Source: a virus (taxonomy: Duplodnaviria; Heunggongvirae; Uroviricota; Caudoviricetes). From it: 30,092 bases of DNA. The position numbers and the translations under genes were made by a program. Positions 4,305 through 27,295 of the stretch are shown in pieces (position 1 is the stretch's first letter; every line of letters starts with the position of its first letter). The notes under the pieces were generated by a model. The model was not told where the DNA came from and did no database searches. It saw nothing but the letters and a program-made list of their open reading frames with translations. The DNA is taken from the IMG/VR virus record IMGVR_UViG_3300036819_000070; one strand, 5' to 3'.

Positions 4305-5267
4305 CTAGATGAGGTTCACGGTCGCTATGGTGTTATTGGTGAGTTCGGTGTCCGCGAGGTCGCTATGGGTGAGGACCACTGAAAGGGCCCTCGGTGGCCA
4401 CGGCCGGGCGGGTGGGAAAAACTTGATTCCGGTCCCGATCCCGGTAATGGCCAGCGCGACCAGCGCGCCAGTAGCGACGGTTTTGCGTGCAGCGCCGGTA
4501 TCCGACAATCCGACCGTGCACACCCCGCCGGTTATCGCAACCTTGCGAATGCCGGCGGTCCCGACAAGACCGAGATAAATACGGCCCGCATTACCGAGGT
4601 CGGTGTGTGCGGTAGCCAGGCCGATGAAGCAACGGCCCGCGTTAGCGGACAACTTCCGGGCGATGCCGGTAGCCGTCGCACCGAGCGGCCCGGTACCCGA
4701 CTGGGGGGTTTTCTTGCTCGCGGTGGACGCGGCACTGAGTCCGGCCGCGCTCGCGCCCGCTTCGGGTGCGTGTTTGCTGCCAGTGCCGGTACCGGTGAGC
4801 CCGGCCACCACCCGACCCGCTTCGGCGGTGTGCTTGCTCGCGGTACCAGCGGTGGCGAAACCCAGCGCGGTGGTCCCGGTTTGGCTGACGACCTTGCGTG
4901 CCGTCGAGCTGGTCGACAAACCCAGCGGACCCGTGCCGAGGCCCTTAGCTGTCTTGTGCTGGCTAGCCGTCGAGGTGAGGCCCACGGCTGCGGCACCAGT
5001 GGGCAGTGCCCGCTGAACACTGGTGCCCTTGGCGGTCAGGCCCAGGGCGCTGCTGCCCGTGTGTGGTGCGGCCTTGCTCGCGGTGCCGGTGGTGGCGAGG
5101 CCCAGTGCGCTGGTGCCGGCCTGGGCGACGACCTTGCTTCCGGTGGCTGTGGTGGCCAACCCCAACACGGCGACGCCGACCGCCGCCTGAATGGCTGGTG
5201 GTGCAACAGCAGCTCCGCTACTACTAATATGCGCCCGGTTAGGGAAGCTGCGGCCTGCTCTAGCCAC
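4305..5267 (-). CDS. 20-aa tandem-repeat virion/fibre-associated protein
   Basis: 320 aa; starts MARAGRSFPNRAH; about 12-13 repeats of G-x-x-(A/P)-LGL-x-x-x-(G/S)-T-x-x-K-x-x-x-x-x (e.g. GTSALGLATTGTASKAAPHT). Confidence 0.8.
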   Translation of the reverse strand: MARAGRSFPNRAHISSSGAAVAPPAIQAAVGVAVLGLATTATGSKVVAQAGTSALGLATTGTASKAAPHTGSSALGLTAKGTSVQRALPTGAAAVGLTSTASQHKTAKGLGTGPLGLSTSSTARKVVSQTGTTALGFATAGTASKHTAEAGRVVAGLTGTGTGSKHAPEAGASAAGLSAASTASKKTPQSGTGPLGATATGIARKLSANAGRCFIGLATAHTDLGNAGRIYLGLVGTAGIRKVAITGGVCTVGLSDTGAARKTVATGALVALAITGIGTGIKFFPPARPWPPRALSVVLTHSDLADTELTNNTIATVNLI

Positions 5268-8238: not shown

Positions 8239-9438
8239 TTACAAGATCCCAAGGCCCAGCGCAAGGCCCTCAGTGGCGGTCGGGATTCGGGTGGTAATCG
8301 TGCCCGGTACGTTCGCCTTGAGTGGGATCACAATGGTATCGAGCATGCATCGGAACGGTTTGAAATCCGGCCGCAGGATGACGTCTAGCGGGTCGTTGCA
8401 TTCCAACGCGGGGTTGGGTACAACCTGCATCGTGAACGTCAGGGGCAGCGCGATGTACCGACGTAGGAGCACCTCACCGGCGAGTTCTACGTCCCCGTCG
8501 GTTTGGAGCAGCGGGGACGAGTAGTACGTCGGGCTCGGCCCGAACTGGGGGTAAGTCGGTTTGTTCCACGCTAACGGGCTGTTGCTGTCAGAATTGAAGG
8601 TTACTATGAAGTCGGTAATGCTTGATGGGTCCGATCCATAAGCGGTCACGATATTGTGTACGTCGGTTCGTTTCACTGATCGTTTCGTGCTGAGGATCGC
8701 GCCACCAGCGCCACCATGTAATGTCGCGACGGCGTGTGAGAAGTCGAACTTGAGGCTATAGACGAGCATTTCACCAGACGTCGTGAACCGGATCCCGGCG
8801 TAATAGAACTTGATCAACTGGGCGAGGTACGCGTAGGAGTCGTCCTCAACGATCTGGTCGCCGATAATAAGGGTCGCATCAGGGTCGTAACCGGTCCAGC
8901 TGATCGGCATCCGCGCGTAGAGGTACATTCCGTAACCATCGGGGCTCAATCCCGGATACGTGGCCTGTTGCGGGATGGCGATACCGTTGACGAGTCTCTG
9001 AAATACGTTGCGGTGACTATCACCGTTATTCAGCGGCAGCGGGAACGCTAACTTATTCTGTTGTAGCTGGGCGGTGCGGTCCAAACAGGTCAAGGTGATG
9101 GGGCCGAATGGTGCGGAGTCCTGGGATGCCTGTTCGATGCGGTGATATCCGAGGCCCACATATTCGGTGTCACCGGGGCCGAACTCGATGCCCCGTTCGA
9201 TGAAAATCTCCTGGCCGAACGGTTGCACGTCATCCCAGAACTCAGCGGGCACAGTAATCGTTAAAGTGCTCTTAATGTCACTCAACGATTGGATCGTTAC
9301 GTTGCCGTCAACGACCGGTAGGTCGGTTCCCGTCGGGTTCAAACCGAACTGCGGCACCGGGTTGCACAACGTCGCCCGGACAGCCATCTTGTGCGGCCCC
9401 TGCAACGCCGCCAGGAACCGATCCGAAACCGCGTGCAT
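8239..9438 (-). CDS. baseplate hub / Tal-like minor tail protein (DUF5047-like)
   Basis: 399 aa; MHAVSDRFLAALQGPH start, PFGQEIFIERGI..G..EYVGLGYHRIE, and C-terminal VPNPALECND, as in actinophage DUF5047-type hub proteins. Confidence 0.75.
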   Translation of the reverse strand: MHAVSDRFLAALQGPHKMAVRATLCNPVPQFGLNPTGTDLPVVDGNVTIQSLSDIKSTLTITVPAEFWDDVQPFGQEIFIERGIEFGPGDTEYVGLGYHRIEQASQDSAPFGPITLTCLDRTAQLQQNKLAFPLPLNNGDSHRNVFQRLVNGIAIPQQATYPGLSPDGYGMYLYARMPISWTGYDPDATLIIGDQIVEDDSYAYLAQLIKFYYAGIRFTTSGEMLVYSLKFDFSHAVATLHGGAGGAILSTKRSVKRTDVHNIVTAYGSDPSSITDFIVTFNSDSNSPLAWNKPTYPQFGPSPTYYSSPLLQTDGDVELAGEVLLRRYIALPLTFTMQVVPNPALECNDPLDVILRPDFKPFRCMLDTIVIPLKANVPGTITTRIPTATEGLALGLGIL

Positions 9439-12112: not shown

Positions 12113-13312
12113 TTATCCCGAGTAGAACTTGGCCATGAGCGACGGGTGATCGCTGTACAGGTCGCCGTCCTGAATCAGGTTCGACCCGACCACCGGGTCA
12201 TACCCGCGAGATTCGAAACCCGTCTTTGGCATATACGCGGTGTTCCCCGCCCAACTGCCACCCTCGGAACCACCCAGCGAATTGAAACCAGGGCCAGGTG
12301 TATTCGCGCCGCTGGCGTCGTCCTGGGCGACGGTGGTGATCCCACCGAGGTTGCTCCAAGCGCCATCGGTGTTACCTGCCGCTTCGTCCTGACCTACGGT
12401 GCTGACCCCGTCAATACCGGACCACACTGAGTCATTAAAAGCGTTGCCGTAGTTCGCTTCGGCTTGGGTCGGAAAATCGGAAGGGGAAGTGAGGGCATCG
12501 CCAGTGTCACCACTGCTACCACCGCCGCCGCTGCCCCATCCGGACAGGGATTTGTTCATGGCCTGGCTGACGGCCTGTTGACCGGCCATGCCGGCTGGGT
12601 CATTCGGATCCCACGGTGGCGCTCCGCTCATCGACATCGACGTGGTTTGTGTCCACGGGTTGATAGGCGCTCCGAACAGTGACCACCTGGCCGGGCCTGA
12701 GGCGTTACCAGTGGCGTCGTAGGAACCATAGGAACCACCGCTGGAGGAACCACCGTCGGAGGAGGAACCACCACCACCGCCGCCCCCACCACCACCACCA
12801 CCGAAAAAACCACCGCCGCCACCGTAAAAACCGAAAAGACCACCGCCGGAACTACCGGAACCGTTGCCGTAGGAGCCACCTTTGTAGGCACCATCACCGT
12901 AGGTGGCACCGCTGTAGGAGCCACCGCCGTAGCCGGCACCGGAGAACCAGCTCGGCGGCTGCGCAGCCACCGGTGGTAGCGGCGCGGGGCCTTGCGTGTC
13001 CGCGCTCTGACTGGCGGATCCAATAGCACTACGGGCATTGGTGAGCAGCCCCGGACCCAACGCGTCGTTTGACTTCGTCAATTGCGACAGATCGCTGGGG
13101 TTCATTTCGGTGGTGAACGCGTCACCGTTGAGGACCGCACCGGGAACCGGGTCCTCATAAGGTTTGACGGTGGTACCGGCTACGCCCTGGTTGAGGCTGA
13201 CACCAGCGGGAAGGGCCGGCGAGTCGAACGTGTAAGCCTGGTTGGCTTGCGCGAGACCCGAGTCACCTTCCCACGCATCCGCTTCGTACTGATCACTAAA
13301 CGGACTGCTCAC
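12113..13312 (-). CDS. Gly/Ser-rich low-complexity protein of unknown function
   Basis: 399-aa ORF co-oriented and tightly packed (4 nt after the chaperone frameshift ORF). Run of about 12 Gly, GGSYG-type repeats, acidic, no Cys. Confidence 0.75.
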   Translation of the reverse strand: MSSPFSDQYEADAWEGDSGLAQANQAYTFDSPALPAGVSLNQGVAGTTVKPYEDPVPGAVLNGDAFTTEMNPSDLSQLTKSNDALGPGLLTNARSAIGSASQSADTQGPAPLPPVAAQPPSWFSGAGYGGGSYSGATYGDGAYKGGSYGNGSGSSGGGLFGFYGGGGGFFGGGGGGGGGGGGSSSDGGSSSGGSYGSYDATGNASGPARWSLFGAPINPWTQTTSMSMSGAPPWDPNDPAGMAGQQAVSQAMNKSLSGWGSGGGGSSGDTGDALTSPSDFPTQAEANYGNAFNDSVWSGIDGVSTVGQDEAAGNTDGAWSNLGGITTVAQDDASGANTPGPGFNSLGGSEGGSWAGNTAYMPKTGFESRGYDPVVGSNLIQDGDLYSDHPSLMAKFYSG

Positions 13313-13315
13313 AAC

Positions 13316-13488
13316 TCACCCCGACATCTGACGGTCGTCGTCGTCTTTATCGGACTTTTTCTTGCTCAGCAATTCCGACGCGGTGACGATGGTGCGCCAG
13401 TCCTGATCGGCCCACACGTCAGGTGCGATACCGGTAGCCACTGCCAGGGCAATGGTCAGCCGAGTCAAAGACCCGGCTGGGTAGGGTC
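13316..13488 (-). CDS. tail assembly chaperone -1 frameshift extension (gpGT-like)
   Basis: The -1 frame from GAC CCT AC (13488-13481) reads PYPAGSLTRLTIALAVATGIAPDVWADQDWRTIVTASELLSKKKSDKDDDDRQMSG-stop (TGA 13318-13316); no convincing own RBS and start. Confidence 0.65.
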
Positions 13489-13746
13489 CGCCGGCTCAGC
13501 CACCGGCTTAGCCGTCGGCTCCTCAAGGTCGACGGAGGTTTCCCATTCGGCTAGCGTCCCCGTGAAGAACCCTTGGCGTTTCGCCGCGACGTGCGTCACC
13601 GAATAAATGTCGGTGATGCGGGGGTCGTTCTCTAACCTCGTCACGGTGTGGGTTCTATCGATTTTCTCCCAGAATACGATGTCGCGGCTTTTCACCGTGA
13701 GGTCGTACGGTTCACCGCTGTCTGGGGTCACGTGGAATGTGAACAT
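13465..13746 (-). CDS. tail assembly chaperone (gpG-like)
   Basis: 93 aa between the major tail region and TMP; ends ...ADPTQPGL; followed by an overlapping -1 frame ORF. Confidence 0.75.
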   Translation of the reverse strand: MFTFHVTPDSGEPYDLTVKSRDIVFWEKIDRTHTVTRLENDPRITDIYSVTHVAAKRQGFFTGTLAEWETSVDLEEPTAKPVAEPADPTQPGL

Positions 13747-14276
13747 CAGGTCGACGTGCCGATCACGACAACCGAATATCCCACCAGTGTGCCCGAGCTG
13801 GAGTTAGCGATTTGGAGTAAATCTCCGGTGCCGGCGGTCACGGCGTAGCCGATGGCGTCAGTGGTGCCCGCGAGCCACACCAGCGTCGCGCCTGGCCGCA
13901 CAATCCCGGTGTGGGTGGTGGCACCGAACAGGCCGGCGACGGCGTTGCTGGACGCGCCGCCCACAACGACATTGTTGGTGTTCGTGGAGTCCGCTGAGAC
14001 CAGCAGCATCTTGATCCGGGCCATGGTGATGGCCCCCCCGAACGGGTCCAGTAGCGGCCCAGCGAGGTCCAACGTTTCCGACGTGGAAGCGGCCAGGGTC
14101 CGGTGATCCCACCACGCTTTGTCGGCTTGGCCGGCGGCTGTCCCGCTCGCGAGGGCCACACCGTAGTTGCTGGAAAGGTTCGCTGCTGACACACCGGAGT
14201 TGAGTGTGTTAGCGAAGTTCACCGCGACGGATAGCTGCACCACGGTACTGAGCGCGATTGCTGTGCTAGTAGCCAT
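13746..14276 (-). CDS. putative tail-associated structural protein
   Basis: 176 aa, A/T/G/S-rich beta protein directly after the major tail protein; coupled to the next gene by TGATG. Confidence 0.6.
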   Translation of the reverse strand: MATSTAIALSTVVQLSVAVNFANTLNSGVSAANLSSNYGVALASGTAAGQADKAWWDHRTLAASTSETLDLAGPLLDPFGGAITMARIKMLLVSADSTNTNNVVVGGASSNAVAGLFGATTHTGIVRPGATLVWLAGTTDAIGYAVTAGTGDLLQIANSSSGTLVGYSVVVIGTST

Positions 14277-14279
14277 GGG

Positions 14280-14744
14280 TCACCCGACCCGAGTGAATAG
14301 GGGAAGGCCGAGGACGAGCAGGGTCACGCTGGTCTCCTCTAGGGTTCTGATGTCGCCACCGACGGTGGGTGCTTTCAATACGCACGTCCCGTTCCAGCGA
14401 ATGTGTTCACCGACGATGTCGGGCATGTGGTCCAATTGAAAAGTGGCCACCGCTCGACTGTTGTTCCATAGCAGGTCTGAGATGCCACCGAAGCGCCAGT
14501 CAGCGTAGAACTTCAACTGAAGCGAGTAGTCATTATCTGTTTCAGTCCGGAACTCCGACGGGTTCCCGCAATACGTATATGTCTTAACACCGTCTACTGT
14601 ATTGTTCATCATGTTCCAGTTATTCAACTGACATGAATAGTCAACGCTGTTTAGGGTAAACGTTACGATTTTCAGACGCCGCGTGTGGACGCCTAAACCC
14701 GTTGGCGAAAAGGGAGAGCCCCCGGTGTTTACTGGTGCGGTCAT
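14280..14744 (-). CDS. major tail (tube) protein
   Basis: 154 aa; TLNSVDYSCQL...YSLQLKFYADW...F.LD...RWNGTC...PTVGGD...SVTL pattern and position after the neck genes. Confidence 0.75.
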   Translation of the reverse strand: MTAPVNTGGSPFSPTGLGVHTRRLKIVTFTLNSVDYSCQLNNWNMMNNTVDGVKTYTYCGNPSEFRTETDNDYSLQLKFYADWRFGGISDLLWNNSRAVATFQLDHMPDIVGEHIRWNGTCVLKAPTVGGDIRTLEETSVTLLVLGLPLFTRVG

Positions 14745-17963: not shown

Positions 17964-18818
17964 TTATTCGTCGTCGGCGAGGACGATCGTCCGCACCAAA
18001 TTGATAGAGCGGCCCATGGGAACTTCGACGGGGGGCGCTTCGTCGGCAACGGACCGCTGAGGTGCCCGCTGTTGGTTCCCACCGTTGCCACCGCTGGTGG
18101 AATCGAGCCGATCCTGCAAATGACGCATCGCGGCACGGGCCGCACCGATCGGCAACCGGTCTACTTCGTCCATGACCCGACGGGCTCTGGCCGCAATGCT
18201 GGTAGTCGGGTTCGCGCCATAGTTCACGGCCGACACATCACCGCACTGCAAGTCCAACTGGAGCATGGTGAACTGGGTGAAGTCCTCGTTCCATTCGCCC
18301 TCTTCCAACATCGCAGCGAAGCTCATTTGGTCGACGCTGCGGTCGTTGATGGCGATGGCGAGGTCGCTGACGTCGGTGCGCGCCGGATTGAGCCACGCGT
18401 CAGTGATAAGCCCTTCCGGGCCCGCCGATAGGGTCAGCGTCCCGTTCGTTGTCCGGGCCATTGTCAGGCCCGTGTGATTGACCAGGAATGCGACGTCGGG
18501 CTTCCGCGCCAGCGAGTTATTGAACGCCGTCGAGGACACCTTTTCCGTGTATGGGCCAAACATATCCCACATTTCATAAGGTGTTTCCGTAGTTGATGCG
18601 ACGCCCGAAAGGTGATGCCATTCCTTGGAGTCATCGGGGCTACCTGCACGCTTTTCCATGGTGGCGCGGAGCACCGCCGGAAACGTCATACGGCGGACCG
18701 GCCCAACGTCTAAGGGCGGTGCGCAGCGTGACCGGCGAATGCCCTCGGGACTGGTGTCCTCGACCGCTTCGCGGCGCGCCCGCGACGCCTGTTCCCGAGC
18801 CACTTCGATGTCGATCAT
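17964..18818 (-). CDS. HK97-family prohead (capsid maturation) protease
   Basis: 284 aa; LSGVAST..PYEM, VAFLVNH (catalytic His), GTLTL...GL, DQMSF (catalytic Ser), DVSAVNYGANPTT. Confidence 0.9.
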   Translation of the reverse strand: MIDIEVAREQASRARREAVEDTSPEGIRRSRCAPPLDVGPVRRMTFPAVLRATMEKRAGSPDDSKEWHHLSGVASTTETPYEMWDMFGPYTEKVSSTAFNNSLARKPDVAFLVNHTGLTMARTTNGTLTLSAGPEGLITDAWLNPARTDVSDLAIAINDRSVDQMSFAAMLEEGEWNEDFTQFTMLQLDLQCGDVSAVNYGANPTTSIAARARRVMDEVDRLPIGAARAAMRHLQDRLDSTSGGNGGNQQRAPQRSVADEAPPVEVPMGRSINLVRTIVLADDE

Positions 18819-19354: not shown

Positions 19355-19425
19355 TCCACCGTGGGGTAATGGCAGCCCACCGGCCTCTGGTGCCGGTTAT
19401 CCAAGTTCGAATCTTGGCGGTGGAG
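19355..19425 (+). tRNA. tRNA-Gln(CTG)
   Basis: Cloverleaf: acceptor TCCACCG/CGGTGGA, D-arm GGGT-AATGGCA-GCCC, anticodon arm CCGGC-CTCTGGT-GCCGG, T-arm CCAAG-TTCGAAT-CTTGG, discriminator G; no encoded CCA. Confidence 0.95.
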
Positions 19426-19429
19426 CTAA

Positions 19430-19500
19430 TCCCCCGTGGTGCAATGGCAGCACAACGGATTTTGGTTCCGTGGATTCAGGTTCGAGTCCTGGCGGGGGAG
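19430..19500 (+). tRNA. tRNA-Gln(TTG)
   Basis: Cloverleaf: acceptor TCCCCCG/CGGGGGA, D-arm GTGC-AATGGCA-GCAC, anticodon arm ACGGA-TTTTGGT-TCCGT, T-arm TCAGG-TTCGAGT-CCTGG, discriminator G; no encoded CCA. Confidence 0.95.
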
Positions 19501-20715
19501 CTACACACCGGGGGTGAGGGGTTGCGCCGTCGGTGATCGCGACGGCGGCTTCGGTGGCCAGAACCGGTCGAACTCGTCCTTTTGCGAGTCGGTCAGCGGC
19601 GGCAAGTCATCGATCAACCGGGCTTCGGACAGTGCGAGTACCCGGCCAGCTACGCGAAGGTTGATTGCTTCGGCGCGGGTCATTGGGTCCATTCGCAGCA
19701 ACGCGTCAGGGTTGAGTTTCACGAATTGTTGCGCGGGCAGTAGTTTGTTTAGCGCGTTCTCGCGCCGGATCATCGCCGGCCCGAGCGACATGGTCAAAAA
19801 TTGGAGGTTTCTTTGCGTGACGTTCGCGTAGGTCACGGCGCTACCGGATATCGCTGAGTCGATTAAGTCGGCGGGGCAGTCGAGGAATCGGGAGATGTCC
19901 GTCGGCCCGAGCTTGCGGGCCTCGATCCATTCCATTCCGGTTTGCTCGGCCTGGATCATCTGGTAGTTCCAGTCCTTACCGGTGACTAATGCGTCACCGC
20001 TATGGACGGATTCTTTCAGGCGGGATTTGATCGCCTGCGCTTGCGTGTCGGAGATCGTGGCTTGCATGTTGTTCTGGAGGTGACTGCGCGGGATGCCGCC
20101 GCTGGTAAACCAGCTGATCGCAAAGTCCTGAATGCTCAAATGCTCACTGATGCACCAGGCCGCATACATAATCGGTGACAGCCCTAAGTGGAAGCCAGAG
20201 ACTGTGTATTGTTTTTCGTGCCAGATCTTCGACGGCGCGTACGGCTTACCTCGGATGAAGTATTCGATCAGTTTGTTGTCGATGACGTTGACGCTGACCC
20301 ATGCCAGAGGCACCAGTTCGATACACGCCGGCAATCCCCAGCCGTTGATCGCGGTGATAATCCCAATAGAGTTACCAGCACGATCTAGGTCAAATTGCGT
20401 GCTGAACATCCACTCCATGTAATCGCATTCGACACCGCCTGGCGACACAATAATCGGTGGCTTCGCGATCTCAATATGAGGCATGCCGTACTGAGGTTTG
20501 CGGAATACGTCGATAGGAAACGTGGAGATCAGATTGGCACGTAACCGTAAACACGCCCACACCGCCGAATGCCGCAGAGCCGACTCATTGTTAATCATGT
20601 GGCCGGGCTGCAATTGCATATTCATGCGGTGCGGAATCACATCGGCCGCGAGCCCACCGGGGAACTCGCCCCAGTACGGTCCCATAATGTTAGCTGTACG
20701 GAATAGGAGGCTCAC
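19501..20715 (-). CDS. portal protein (HK97 family)
   Basis: 404 aa; SAVWACLRLRANLISTFPIDVF, GLSPI, ISRFLDCPADLI, YANVTQRNLQF, EARLIDDLPP. Confidence 0.93.
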   Translation of the reverse strand: MSLLFRTANIMGPYWGEFPGGLAADVIPHRMNMQLQPGHMINNESALRHSAVWACLRLRANLISTFPIDVFRKPQYGMPHIEIAKPPIIVSPGGVECDYMEWMFSTQFDLDRAGNSIGIITAINGWGLPACIELVPLAWVSVNVIDNKLIEYFIRGKPYAPSKIWHEKQYTVSGFHLGLSPIMYAAWCISEHLSIQDFAISWFTSGGIPRSHLQNNMQATISDTQAQAIKSRLKESVHSGDALVTGKDWNYQMIQAEQTGMEWIEARKLGPTDISRFLDCPADLIDSAISGSAVTYANVTQRNLQFLTMSLGPAMIRRENALNKLLPAQQFVKLNPDALLRMDPMTRAEAINLRVAGRVLALSEARLIDDLPPLTDSQKDEFDRFWPPKPPSRSPTAQPLTPGV

Positions 20716-20734: not shown

Positions 20735-20962
20735 CTATTGTTGTTTAGGTGGTGCGTGCATAGCTCGCTGCCGAGTCGCAGCCAGGGTCGCGAAACCCAA
20801 CAGGCACACACCCGAAATGGTCAGCAGCCCGGCTAAACCGAACCAGCACGCCGCGACGACCCCAAGACCTAACGACACGAGCAACATTCCCAGGGTTTCC
20901 AGTGCCACGATGAGAAGCTCCTGCACGAACCTCAACGGATTGATTCCAACACGTCGTAACAC
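20735..20962 (-). CDS. small membrane protein between terL and portal
   Basis: Two hydrophobic segments; position common in actinophages; start uncertain (GTG 20926 possible). Confidence 0.65.
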   Translation of the reverse strand: MLRRVGINPLRFVQELLIVALETLGMLLVSLGLGVVAACWFGLAGLLTISGVCLLGFATLAATRQRAMHAPPKQQ

Positions 20963-22398
20963 TCCGCTCCGTAAACCGCGAGGCCGTGTATCGCGAGCGC
21001 GGCGACCATCAGCGGTGAAATGTCCTGCTCAGATCGGCGCCGGCCGAAAGCCCAGCCACCGTCACCGATATCCCTCTTTTTCGCGGCCCTAATCGCTTCG
21101 TCTAAAGACAACTGCCCGATGTGCCGTAACTTGTCACGATCCGATGTGGTCGCAGCGGCGAGCATCCCCCCGCACGCCTGCGACAGTTCCCGACCGTTGA
21201 CCAGCTTCGGTTCGATACCCGCTTCGGCCAGGTCGGTGACTAGAGCTCCAGCTGGCCCGGCCGCGTCGAGGATCCACGCGATCGGACCCCACTCGGCTTC
21301 CAGCTCGACAACGCGGGGCACCATCCAGTCGACGCCGGCACGGTGGTCAAGCTGCCCGTCGCGGCCGGTGATCTCGAAGTGGGGAATCCCGTCGTCGCGG
21401 TACCCGGCGACACCGATACAACCACTGAGCAGGTCCGGTGACGCGTCGAGGGCGAACACCATCGGGGCGCCACGGATTCGGGAATCCGGATCGAGTAGCC
21501 GCGTCCACAACACCGGGTCGATCAGGGGTGCGCCACGCGGGTCATCCCAAATGCCCAGGACTTCTCTCGCATATTCGATTTCGTCCATGGAGCGTTGCGC
21601 GAGTACCAGCGTTTCTCGAGAGATTCGGATACCGAGCGCCGGGTTAGCTTGCGCCAGCACCATAGGGTCGGTGGCCGCCGCTTCCGGGTTCGCCCGGTAA
21701 TGCTCCTCGTCGGCGCTCCACTCGTAATACGCTAAACCGGGATCGCGATCCATTCCACGTTGCCGGATCCGGCGCAACGCGTGCGACGCGGGCTTGCCGG
21801 CAGAACTGAGATACCACAATTGCCAGTTGGGCCTAGCGAAAAGAATCGGCATCAGCGCGCCCACGTGATCCGTGGCGAGCGCGAACGCTTCATCGAAAAA
21901 CACCATATCGCCCGACCAGCCACGGGCCGACGAACCGGACCTGGCCACGAAGTCAATACGGGCCCGCGATTTCAGTTCGATGGACTGTTCTTCGTTGCTG
22001 ATCCGGATCTGTTTGACTTCCCGATCCAAATCAGGTTTCGACTCGATGAGCTGCTGGATCCGTTCCCGCATTTTCCGGGACGTCGCCATAAGGTGCGCCG
22101 TGTAAACGATCTTGAGGTGACTGAGGTAAATCGCGGCGAGCGAAGCGACCTCGACGATAACGGTCTTACCGTTCTGGCGCGGTACCACAAGGCCCACTTC
22201 GGGGGCGCTGAATCGTCCGCTCACGGTTTGACCGAGTGCACCCCGCAGAACACGACGCTGCCACGGATCAAGGGGCATCCCCACCATTTCGGCGAGGTCG
22301 ATCGCTTCGTCACCGGCGCTAATCTCCCACGGCGGGACTGACTCGATCCGAGGTATCTGGGACCCGACTGGTTTCGATCCGGCGAGCCCTGAGTTCAT
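20932..22398 (-). CDS. terL: terminase large subunit
   Basis: Start reassigned to ATG 22398 (RBS GGAG). GSQIPR and LDPWQ N-terminus, Walker A VPRQNGKT, Walker B VFFDEA, coupling motif YLSSAG, nuclease FALDASP and DISPL. Confidence 0.93.
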   Translation of the reverse strand: MNSGLAGSKPVGSQIPRIESVPPWEISAGDEAIDLAEMVGMPLDPWQRRVLRGALGQTVSGRFSAPEVGLVVPRQNGKTVIVEVASLAAIYLSHLKIVYTAHLMATSRKMRERIQQLIESKPDLDREVKQIRISNEEQSIELKSRARIDFVARSGSSARGWSGDMVFFDEAFALATDHVGALMPILFARPNWQLWYLSSAGKPASHALRRIRQRGMDRDPGLAYYEWSADEEHYRANPEAAATDPMVLAQANPALGIRISRETLVLAQRSMDEIEYAREVLGIWDDPRGAPLIDPVLWTRLLDPDSRIRGAPMVFALDASPDLLSGCIGVAGYRDDGIPHFEITGRDGQLDHRAGVDWMVPRVVELEAEWGPIAWILDAAGPAGALVTDLAEAGIEPKLVNGRELSQACGGMLAAATTSDRDKLRHIGQLSLDEAIRAAKKRDIGDGGWAFGRRRSEQDISPLMVAALAIHGLAVYGAECYDVLESIR

Positions 22399-22639
22399 CC
22401 AGCTCGCTCCTGACCGGCTCGACGGGTGTAGGCGGTGCGGCCTTGTCTTCGCGGTAGGCGAGGCGGCGTAGCTCAGCGAGGACTCGTTGGACACCACCGC
22501 CGCTGGCTGAGTGGCCGGCGTCGAAGTTCCGGGCGTGTAGTCGACCGATCTCGATCAGCCCACATTCCCGGGCTTGGAGATCTTCCGACAATTGCCGGAC
22601 TTGCTTATTAAAAGCGAGTAGCGTGGTGCGACTACTCAT
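22319..22639 (-). CDS. terS: terminase small subunit
   Basis: ATG 22639 with RBS GGGGGT; helical protein with C-terminal LDELRARR motif typical of actinophage TerS; overlaps the terL start. Confidence 0.7.
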   Translation of the reverse strand: MSSRTTLLAFNKQVRQLSEDLQARECGLIEIGRLHARNFDAGHSASGGGVQRVLAELRRLAYREDKAAPPTPVEPVRSELDELRARRIETSRVPDTSDRVSPAVGD

Positions 22640-27217: not shown

Positions 27218-27222
27218 TTCGG

Positions 27223-27295
27223 TACCCCCAGCGGGATTCGAACCCGCGCCACCGCTGTGAAAGAGCGGAATCCTAGGCCGCTAGACGATAGGGAT
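27223..27295 (-). tRNA. tRNA-Glu(TTC)
   Basis: Minus strand ATCCCTA-TC-GTCTAGCGGCCTAGGAT-T-CCGCT-CTTTCAC-AGCGG-TGGC-GCGGG-TTCGAAT-CCCGC-TGGGGGT-A; D-arm matches actinobacterial tRNA-Glu; acceptor stem has two G:U pairs. Confidence 0.85.

Follow-up and report, generated by a model that had tools for sequence, protein, structure and literature searches.

A conserved family of acidic proteins, predicted to be largely disordered, is encoded between the candidate tail assembly chaperone and tape measure genes of soil phages

Siphophage tail modules are highly stereotyped, with genes for the tail tube, G, GT and the tape measure protein (TMP). In the 30,092 nucleotides of viral DNA analysed here, to which we refer as the window, a 399-amino-acid (aa) open reading frame (ORF) lies between the chaperone and tape measure genes, as a preliminary description of the sequence had claimed. 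That description called this a position at which siphoviruses normally have no gene, and canonical siphophage tail modules do leave the slot empty. It portrayed the product as a prion-like Gly/Ser/Tyr low-complexity (LC) protein and proposed that it was an unfolded cargo of the virion, a condensate- or amyloid-forming assembly factor or an anti-defence factor. The locus thus raises two questions: is the LC gene a real and stable part of this tail module and, if so, what might its product do there?

The structural operon surrounding the LC gene runs on the minus strand from the terminase to the tail genes (Table 1), with two tube-type genes in tandem (154 and 176 aa; 13746-14744) before gpG. 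The gpG-like gene has a weak PHROG match (phrog_6889, E = 0.0015, function unknown), and its conserved homologues are all unnamed hypothetical proteins. Its 3' end is overlapped by a 'T' extension, the frame of which is conserved in all related loci and the would-be start codon of which may be ATG, GTG, TTG, CTG or TTA. Within the overlap, an 18-nucleotide (nt) stretch is invariant across loci save for one base in L018 and L019 (the near-invariant stretch is CCCTACCCAGCCGGG). Because the T frame is conserved, its start is unconserved and the overlap nucleotides are near-invariant, these features fit a programmed G/GT frameshift, and the extension is probably reached by programmed -1 frameshifting. 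No canonical XXXYYYZ heptamer is present in the overlap stretch, which may hold a non-canonical -1 signal; C-CCT is a possible single-tRNA slip site. We also considered independent initiation of the extension, but an NTGA overlap is found in the window, L001 and L015, and CTG or TTA occurs elsewhere, which favours frameshifting. The resulting gpT part would be unusually short, at about 50 aa.

As the G/T pair consists of the 93-aa gene and its 59-codon extension, the LC gene sits between the chaperone pair and the TMP gene and is not itself gpG/gpGT. Two ways of joining it to its neighbours were rejected. The first is a G-T/LC fusion by read-through or frameshifting. In the window, LC does continue the T frame after a TGA, but this frame relationship is not conserved: the LC and T frames differ and overlap in L005, L006, L007 and L011, and L002 has two stops. 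For an LC-TMP read-through fusion, the frames are likewise unconserved, and a fused open frame exists in no locus. The TMP gene has a strong Shine-Dalgarno sequence 32 nt past the LC stop. Its product is basic and hydrophobic (pI 9.8, net charge +8, GRAVY +0.54), and its PHROG matches begin only at profile positions 138-550, typical N-terminal TMP regions being missing.

Table 1 Features of the tail module and LC gene in the window
Feature	Position	Strand	Details
Terminase	20932-22497	minus	
Portal	19501-20715	minus	PF04860
S78 protease	17964-18818	minus	
Capsid, then small connector-type genes		minus	Between the S78 protease and 154-aa genes in module order
154-aa protein	14280-14744	minus	Matches PHROG major tail protein family
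176-aa protein	13746-14276	minus	Matches unannotated PHROG only (E = 3.6e-52)
gpG-like candidate tail assembly chaperone, 93 aa	13465-13746	minus	Directly after the tail-tube-type genes
gpG/T overlap, holding the near-invariant stretch	13465-13500	minus	
T extension, 59 codons	13316-13495	minus	-1 frame; overlaps the gpG end; ends RQMSG
LC gene	12113-13312	minus	GTG start, 399 aa, stop at 12113-12115; ORF and translation
LC N-terminal module, residues 1-112	12977-13312	minus	Alignments; HMM matches in distant loci
Gly/Ser/Tyr low-complexity expansion, residues about 122-200	12713-12949	minus	DNA tandem repeats
LC C-terminal conserved region, residues 271-399	12116-12502	minus	dN/dS 0.015-0.06
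TMP, 411 aa	10845-12080	minus	Nine PHROG tape-measure families, best E = 7e-18
468-aa protein, then DUF5047 tail protein		minus	After TMP; abut at 9438

The same operon carries additional genes in some relatives. An Acb5-family gene (PF26761; 80-87 aa) separates the 468-aa gene from the DUF5047 tail gene in L002 (13990-14247), L012 (4620-4862), L013 (9553-9816), L018 (14104-14367) and L020 (10391-10654); in the window, this gene is absent and the two flanking genes abut. Close to its portal gene, L002 carries an Acb2/Tad1-hairpin gene as well. An insertion of about 1.8 kb separates the TMP gene from a 478-aa gene in L009 (5884-7688) and L010 (7673-9477); it contains an open frame of 261 codons, whose Cys-x2-His motif hints at a homing endonuclease. 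Elsewhere in the window, the minus strand encodes a 320-aa protein rich in Ala, Gly, Thr and Ser (4305-5267), built from a repeating unit of about 16 aa, of the type GL.T.GT.SK....G, that occurs in many copies. It has no Pfam match and may be a fibre protein or serve in decoration. On the plus strand, the interval separating the portal gene from the protease gene holds a neighbouring pair of tRNA-Gln genes with CTG and TTG anticodons (19355-19501), and a tRNA-Glu gene is found at 27221-27295 on the minus strand. Between 24000 and 28000, GC skew reaches -0.26 and AT skew +0.33 over plus-strand genes, far more extreme than in the structural module, and the ORFs scanned there have no Pfam match.

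A purine-rich sequence, GGGGTGAG, stands immediately 5' of the GTG start of the LC ORF. Several lines of evidence bear on whether this ORF is a gene. Between the window and a 96% identical locus (L004), the ORF has accumulated 75 synonymous and 18 nonsynonymous changes, giving a dN/dS of 0.066, similar to the 0.044 of the TMP gene in the same comparison. In soil populations of relatives, all the indels listed within the ORF add up to net changes in multiples of three. On these comparisons, the LC ORF is a genuine gene under purifying selection, neither a chance nor a shadow ORF, and the earlier statement that it is tightly packed in the late operon is upheld. The preliminary description had named codon-position GC as one feature that could betray a non-coding or shadow ORF, and GC3 is indeed merely 0.66 (0.70-0.79 in neighbouring genes), GC2 is unusually high at 0.615 and several long shadow ORFs overlap the gene; yet the dN/dS in the LC frame, the frame kept by all listed indels and conservation of the family at the protein level effectively refute the reading of a non-coding or shadow ORF produced by high GC content, and the odd pattern follows from the Gly (GGT/GGC) content of the protein, GC3 being muted because its Gly codons are GGT-rich.

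Other elements of the preliminary description also hold for the window protein. The peptide strings that it quoted, rich in Gly, Ser and Tyr, are found in the translation, including the run of 12 Gly, and Gly (85 residues, 21%), Ser (55, 14%), Ala (43, 11%), Pro (28) and Asp (27) dominate the composition. It had reported no Cys, few basic residues and no transmembrane segment; we count 0 Cys and 9 Lys and Arg against 35 Asp and Glu (net charge -26, pI about 4), and the maximum 19-aa Kyte-Doolittle mean is 0.59, compared with 1.98 in the neighbouring TMP.

To assess how widely the gene is kept, we gathered loci by three routes, with the LC protein, the TMP and the gpG-like gene as starting points. 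In about 30 distinct metagenomic or viral contigs, the interval from the RQMSG end of the T extension to the TMP gene holds a family member, bearing out the synteny that the preliminary description had proposed as a check. The slot is occupied down to 53% TMP identity, and none of the loci examined lacks the gene or has it joined to the TMP gene; neither 13 further loci nor the earlier ones contain a fused form. The LC gene is thus a core, position-locked gene of its lineage. In the sub-lineage of L014 and L015, it is split into two coupled ORFs that meet at a TGA-G-ATG junction (stop, one nucleotide, start). The split gene occupies L014:6969-8551 and L015:5490-7035, with an N-terminal ORF of about 206 aa and a C-terminal ORF that the gene caller had broken up, and the LC fragment P0014 ends at the same split point.

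Both word-indexed and exhaustive profile searches point to a small, unannotated family: the exhaustive search, across 1.84 billion representatives, returned eight proteins, all of them LC family members. The window protein matches no family in Pfam, PHROG, the PDB or the ESM Atlas, with a profile search used for the PDB and both the whole protein and its two halves yielding no usable match in the ESM Atlas. Seven divergent members are likewise without a match in these collections. There was no LC match by tblastn and megablast in 50,697 phage records and no relative in the GTDB species genomes scanned. Literature searches for a gene between chaperone and TMP, and for tail proteins that are acidic or of low complexity, found no precedent. 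All members come from uncultured soil phages, and the sequencing runs containing window DNA are all soil metagenomes. The TMP matches by tblastn only the TMPs of Gordonia, Streptomyces and Arthrobacter phages and one relative is labelled part of a Pseudonocardiaceae metagenome-assembled genome; soil Actinomycetota are the probable hosts. In L018 (1-2137), an 844-aa ORF with a faint LAGLIDADG match, possibly an intein-bearing terminase, is followed by a 114-aa protein with an Rpf-type transglycosylase domain that hints at an actinobacterial host.

The properties shared across the family are physical rather than sequence-based. In a table covering 24 loci, LC proteins had a net charge of -20 to -41 and a pI of 4.05-4.45, whereas the adjacent TMPs had a net charge of +3 to +13 and a pI of 9.2-10.6. 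LC lengths ranged from 209 to 546 aa beside TMPs of 383-411 aa, a pattern that fits a role based on charge and disorder and not that of a ruler. Gly content was 9-23% in LC proteins and about 12-17% in TMPs (open-frame estimates). AlphaFold predicted no fold for either the window protein (mean pLDDT 35.9) or the least low-complexity member (47.5), only short helices and hairpins reaching moderate confidence. These models used shallow alignments of 12-18 family sequences, which may partly account for the low pLDDT, and a crude charge-hydropathy calculation places LC on the 'ordered' side of the boundary. The earlier description of an unfolded protein agrees with these predictions, in that no stable fold emerges.

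Family alignments divide the LC protein into four parts: an N-terminal module, a hypervariable low-complexity middle, a C-terminal region and a clade-specific C-terminal tail. The extreme N-terminus, of the type (M/V)S(D/S/N)P, is conserved in most of the family, and a marginal helix pair is predicted at residues 72-100 or so (AlphaFold pLDDT about 45-51). The N-terminal module with this helix pair is the most widely conserved core, and the most distant member (L032) matches it alone by HMM. The C-terminal third has a dN/dS of 0.015 against L004 and includes a 20-aa Trp-Ser motif that is duplicated (residues 294-313 and 316-335; nt 12308-12433) with a score of 65, reached by 0 of 2,000 shuffles (21 +/- 4.6). 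A second motif, GYDP..GSNL, is triplicated in the member P0012, and the conserved tail ends in YSG. Judged by their sequences, such repeated short motifs are typical of multivalent disordered binders. What the family conserves is its position, its acidity and a handful of short motifs, together with the absence of a predicted fold; sequence and length are not conserved.

We tentatively favour, at somewhat less than an even chance, the view that LC acts in tail assembly as a polyanionic, largely disordered protein that partners or escorts the TMP. This reading draws on the conservation of precisely those properties, next to a short TMP of constant length that is both basic and hydrophobic. Docking onto the TMP or a TMP-chaperone complex would involve the helix pair of the N-terminal module, the duplicated Trp-Ser motif and the tail at the C-terminus, and the acidic, disordered bulk would keep the aggregation-prone TMP soluble. 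In solved siphophage tails, the interior of the tail tube is electronegative; assuming the same here, the acidic bulk would also keep the TMP from sticking to the tube interior. LC would thereby supplement the unusually short gpT part. According to one proposal, the periodic aromatic residues of TMPs and of their chaperones form an interaction code (PMC5099701). Two observations qualify how the proposed escort should be read. Position is weaker evidence than usual because this lineage inserts non-structural genes into its structural operon, and a single continuous LC chain is not required because the gene is split in L014 and L015.

We know of no siphophage with a separate lumen cargo protein, and this argues against the first alternative, in which LC is an unfolded virion cargo. 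In that scenario, LC would enter the lumen of the tail tube together with the TMP, or sit at its head-proximal end, and would be ejected into the host envelope before the DNA, to serve as a pilot, a conduit or an early-acting protein. The data on position, acidity and disorder apply to it equally, and a polyanionic unfolded chain would not be expected to stick to an electronegative lumen. The hypervariable middle, with its indels at the population level, could reflect interaction with the host, although disordered linkers are hypervariable by default. Among the 28 window ORFs scanned with Pfam, no ATPase other than the terminase was found and hence no candidate loader. The conserved extreme N-terminus of LC nevertheless recalls the loading signals of contractile injection system payloads (PMC11495950, PMC10097599), and the TMP-RNA polymerase fusion of P23-45 provides a precedent for ejected cargo linked to a TMP (PMC10770324). 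On balance, we consider this alternative unlikely, if still worth entertaining. Its more specific form, argued by analogy, is slightly more doubtful: LC would be the siphophage counterpart of a lumen payload, a polyanionic cargo accompanying a minimal TMP and ejected before the DNA, with a middle region shaped by the host envelope.

Rather improbable, in our judgement, is that LC has nothing to do with tail assembly and is a moron-type insert that simply resides in the late operon, for instance a factor directed against defences or at the host, of which a polyanionic nucleic-acid mimic would be one example. DNA-mimic anti-restriction proteins are typically strongly acidic, as LC is; the gene evolves fast, and relatives carry the Acb5 and Acb2/Tad1-hairpin genes in the same structural operon. 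Yet every related contig examined has LC at exactly this position, whereas the Acb5 and Acb2/Tad1-type genes are dispensable, and the C-terminal region of LC is as constrained as the TMP. Known DNA mimics are also compact and folded, and LC has no predicted fold. The anti-defence idea is without specific support.

The short TMP invites another explanation, that the tape measure has been split, LC being its detached N-terminal half and contributing to tail length. The late start of the PHROG matches within their profiles and the combined length of LC and TMP, about 810 aa and a common TMP size, are what such a split would produce. Homology is not seen, however: hhalign gave a probability of 0.05 between LC and the TMP N-terminus of the Arthrobacter phage MrSmee, and the PHROG TMP families match neither the window protein nor the seven divergent members. 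With few predicted helices (AlphaFold) and low maximum hydropathy, LC also does not resemble a tape measure, and a fused LC-TMP occurs in none of the loci examined. Its length varies 2.6-fold, and even within populations, while that of the TMP is constant, which is unlike a ruler. We regard a split tape measure as very unlikely.

The prion-like character that the preliminary description placed foremost fares worse still. According to this reading, the function of LC is to form condensates or amyloid, driven by its Gly/Ser/Tyr domain. About 80 aa of the window protein have the appropriate look: Tyr recurs every five residues (128, 133, 138, 143 and 148), followed by GLFG/FF motifs and then the 12-Gly run, and in comparison with L004 this part shows 14 synonymous changes and no amino-acid change. 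Only four strict [GS]Y[GS] motifs are present, however, and the protein lacks the conserved, uncharged segment, dense in [G/S]Y[G/S] or rich in Q/N, that marks prion-like or FUS-like domains. The underlying DNA consists of imperfect tandem repeats with periods of 15, 30, 21 and 3, and in-frame variants circulate in soil contigs, among them a 9-nt deletion, seen in three runs, and one of 36 nt within the Gly run. The stretch, which belongs to the hypervariable middle, is limited to the window and its 96-98% identical relatives; most homologues lack it, such as the P0002 type, or have unrelated Q/P/G-rich inserts in its place. By its repeat structure and distribution, it is a recent, lineage-specific repeat expansion in a tolerant linker. 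A FUS-like sticker-and-spacer composition is thus not a defining feature of LC, given its absence from most homologues and a family Gly content that falls to less than half that of the window protein, and condensate or amyloid formation as the function of the family is without specific support. We consider it highly improbable.

The LC family is unannotated and position-locked, and with it the tail module is a variant on the canonical siphophage one, in an uncultured soil lineage, probably of actinophages. Within an otherwise stereotyped array, this lineage keeps an extra core gene that belongs to no known family. As an escort of the TMP, LC would add a disordered polyanion to the repertoire of tail assembly chaperones; as a passenger in the tail, it would represent a new class of ejected phage protein.

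Among known systems, the closest parallel to the proposed escort is with gpG and gpGT of the lambda type, which are acidic, have their coding region between the genes for the tail tube and the TMP, and bind and solubilise the hydrophobic TMP during tube assembly, a job of the same kind. LC has no sequence similarity to them, is 2-5 times larger and is predicted to be disordered. Nor is it a frameshift product, as no fixed relation holds from locus to locus between its frame and that of the T extension, and the phage already has G and T parts of its own. The TMP-RNA polymerase fusion of the Thermus phage P23-45 similarly places an extra polypeptide on the head-proximal side of the TMP gene, and LC, like that TMP-fused cargo, could be carried in the tail and ejected (PMC10770324). 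LC is, however, a separate gene that is never fused, it has neither an enzymatic domain nor helical ruler character, and it differs from TMPs with N-terminal extras in lacking homology to TMP N-termini. The lumen payloads of extracellular contractile injection systems (eCIS/PVC) resemble the proposed LC cargo in being unfolded proteins within a tail-like tube, directed there by an N-terminal segment (PMC11495950, PMC10097599). Contraction and a dedicated AAA ATPase loader characterise those systems, but neither is seen at the LC locus among the 28 ORFs scanned, and there is no homology. Finally, FUS/hnRNP-type and plant glycine-rich domains share with LC residues 122-200 or so the combination of Gly/Ser spacers and regular Tyr or Phe, but the LC segment is short, is embedded in a strongly acidic protein and stems from a recent tandem-repeat expansion that is not conserved in its own family.
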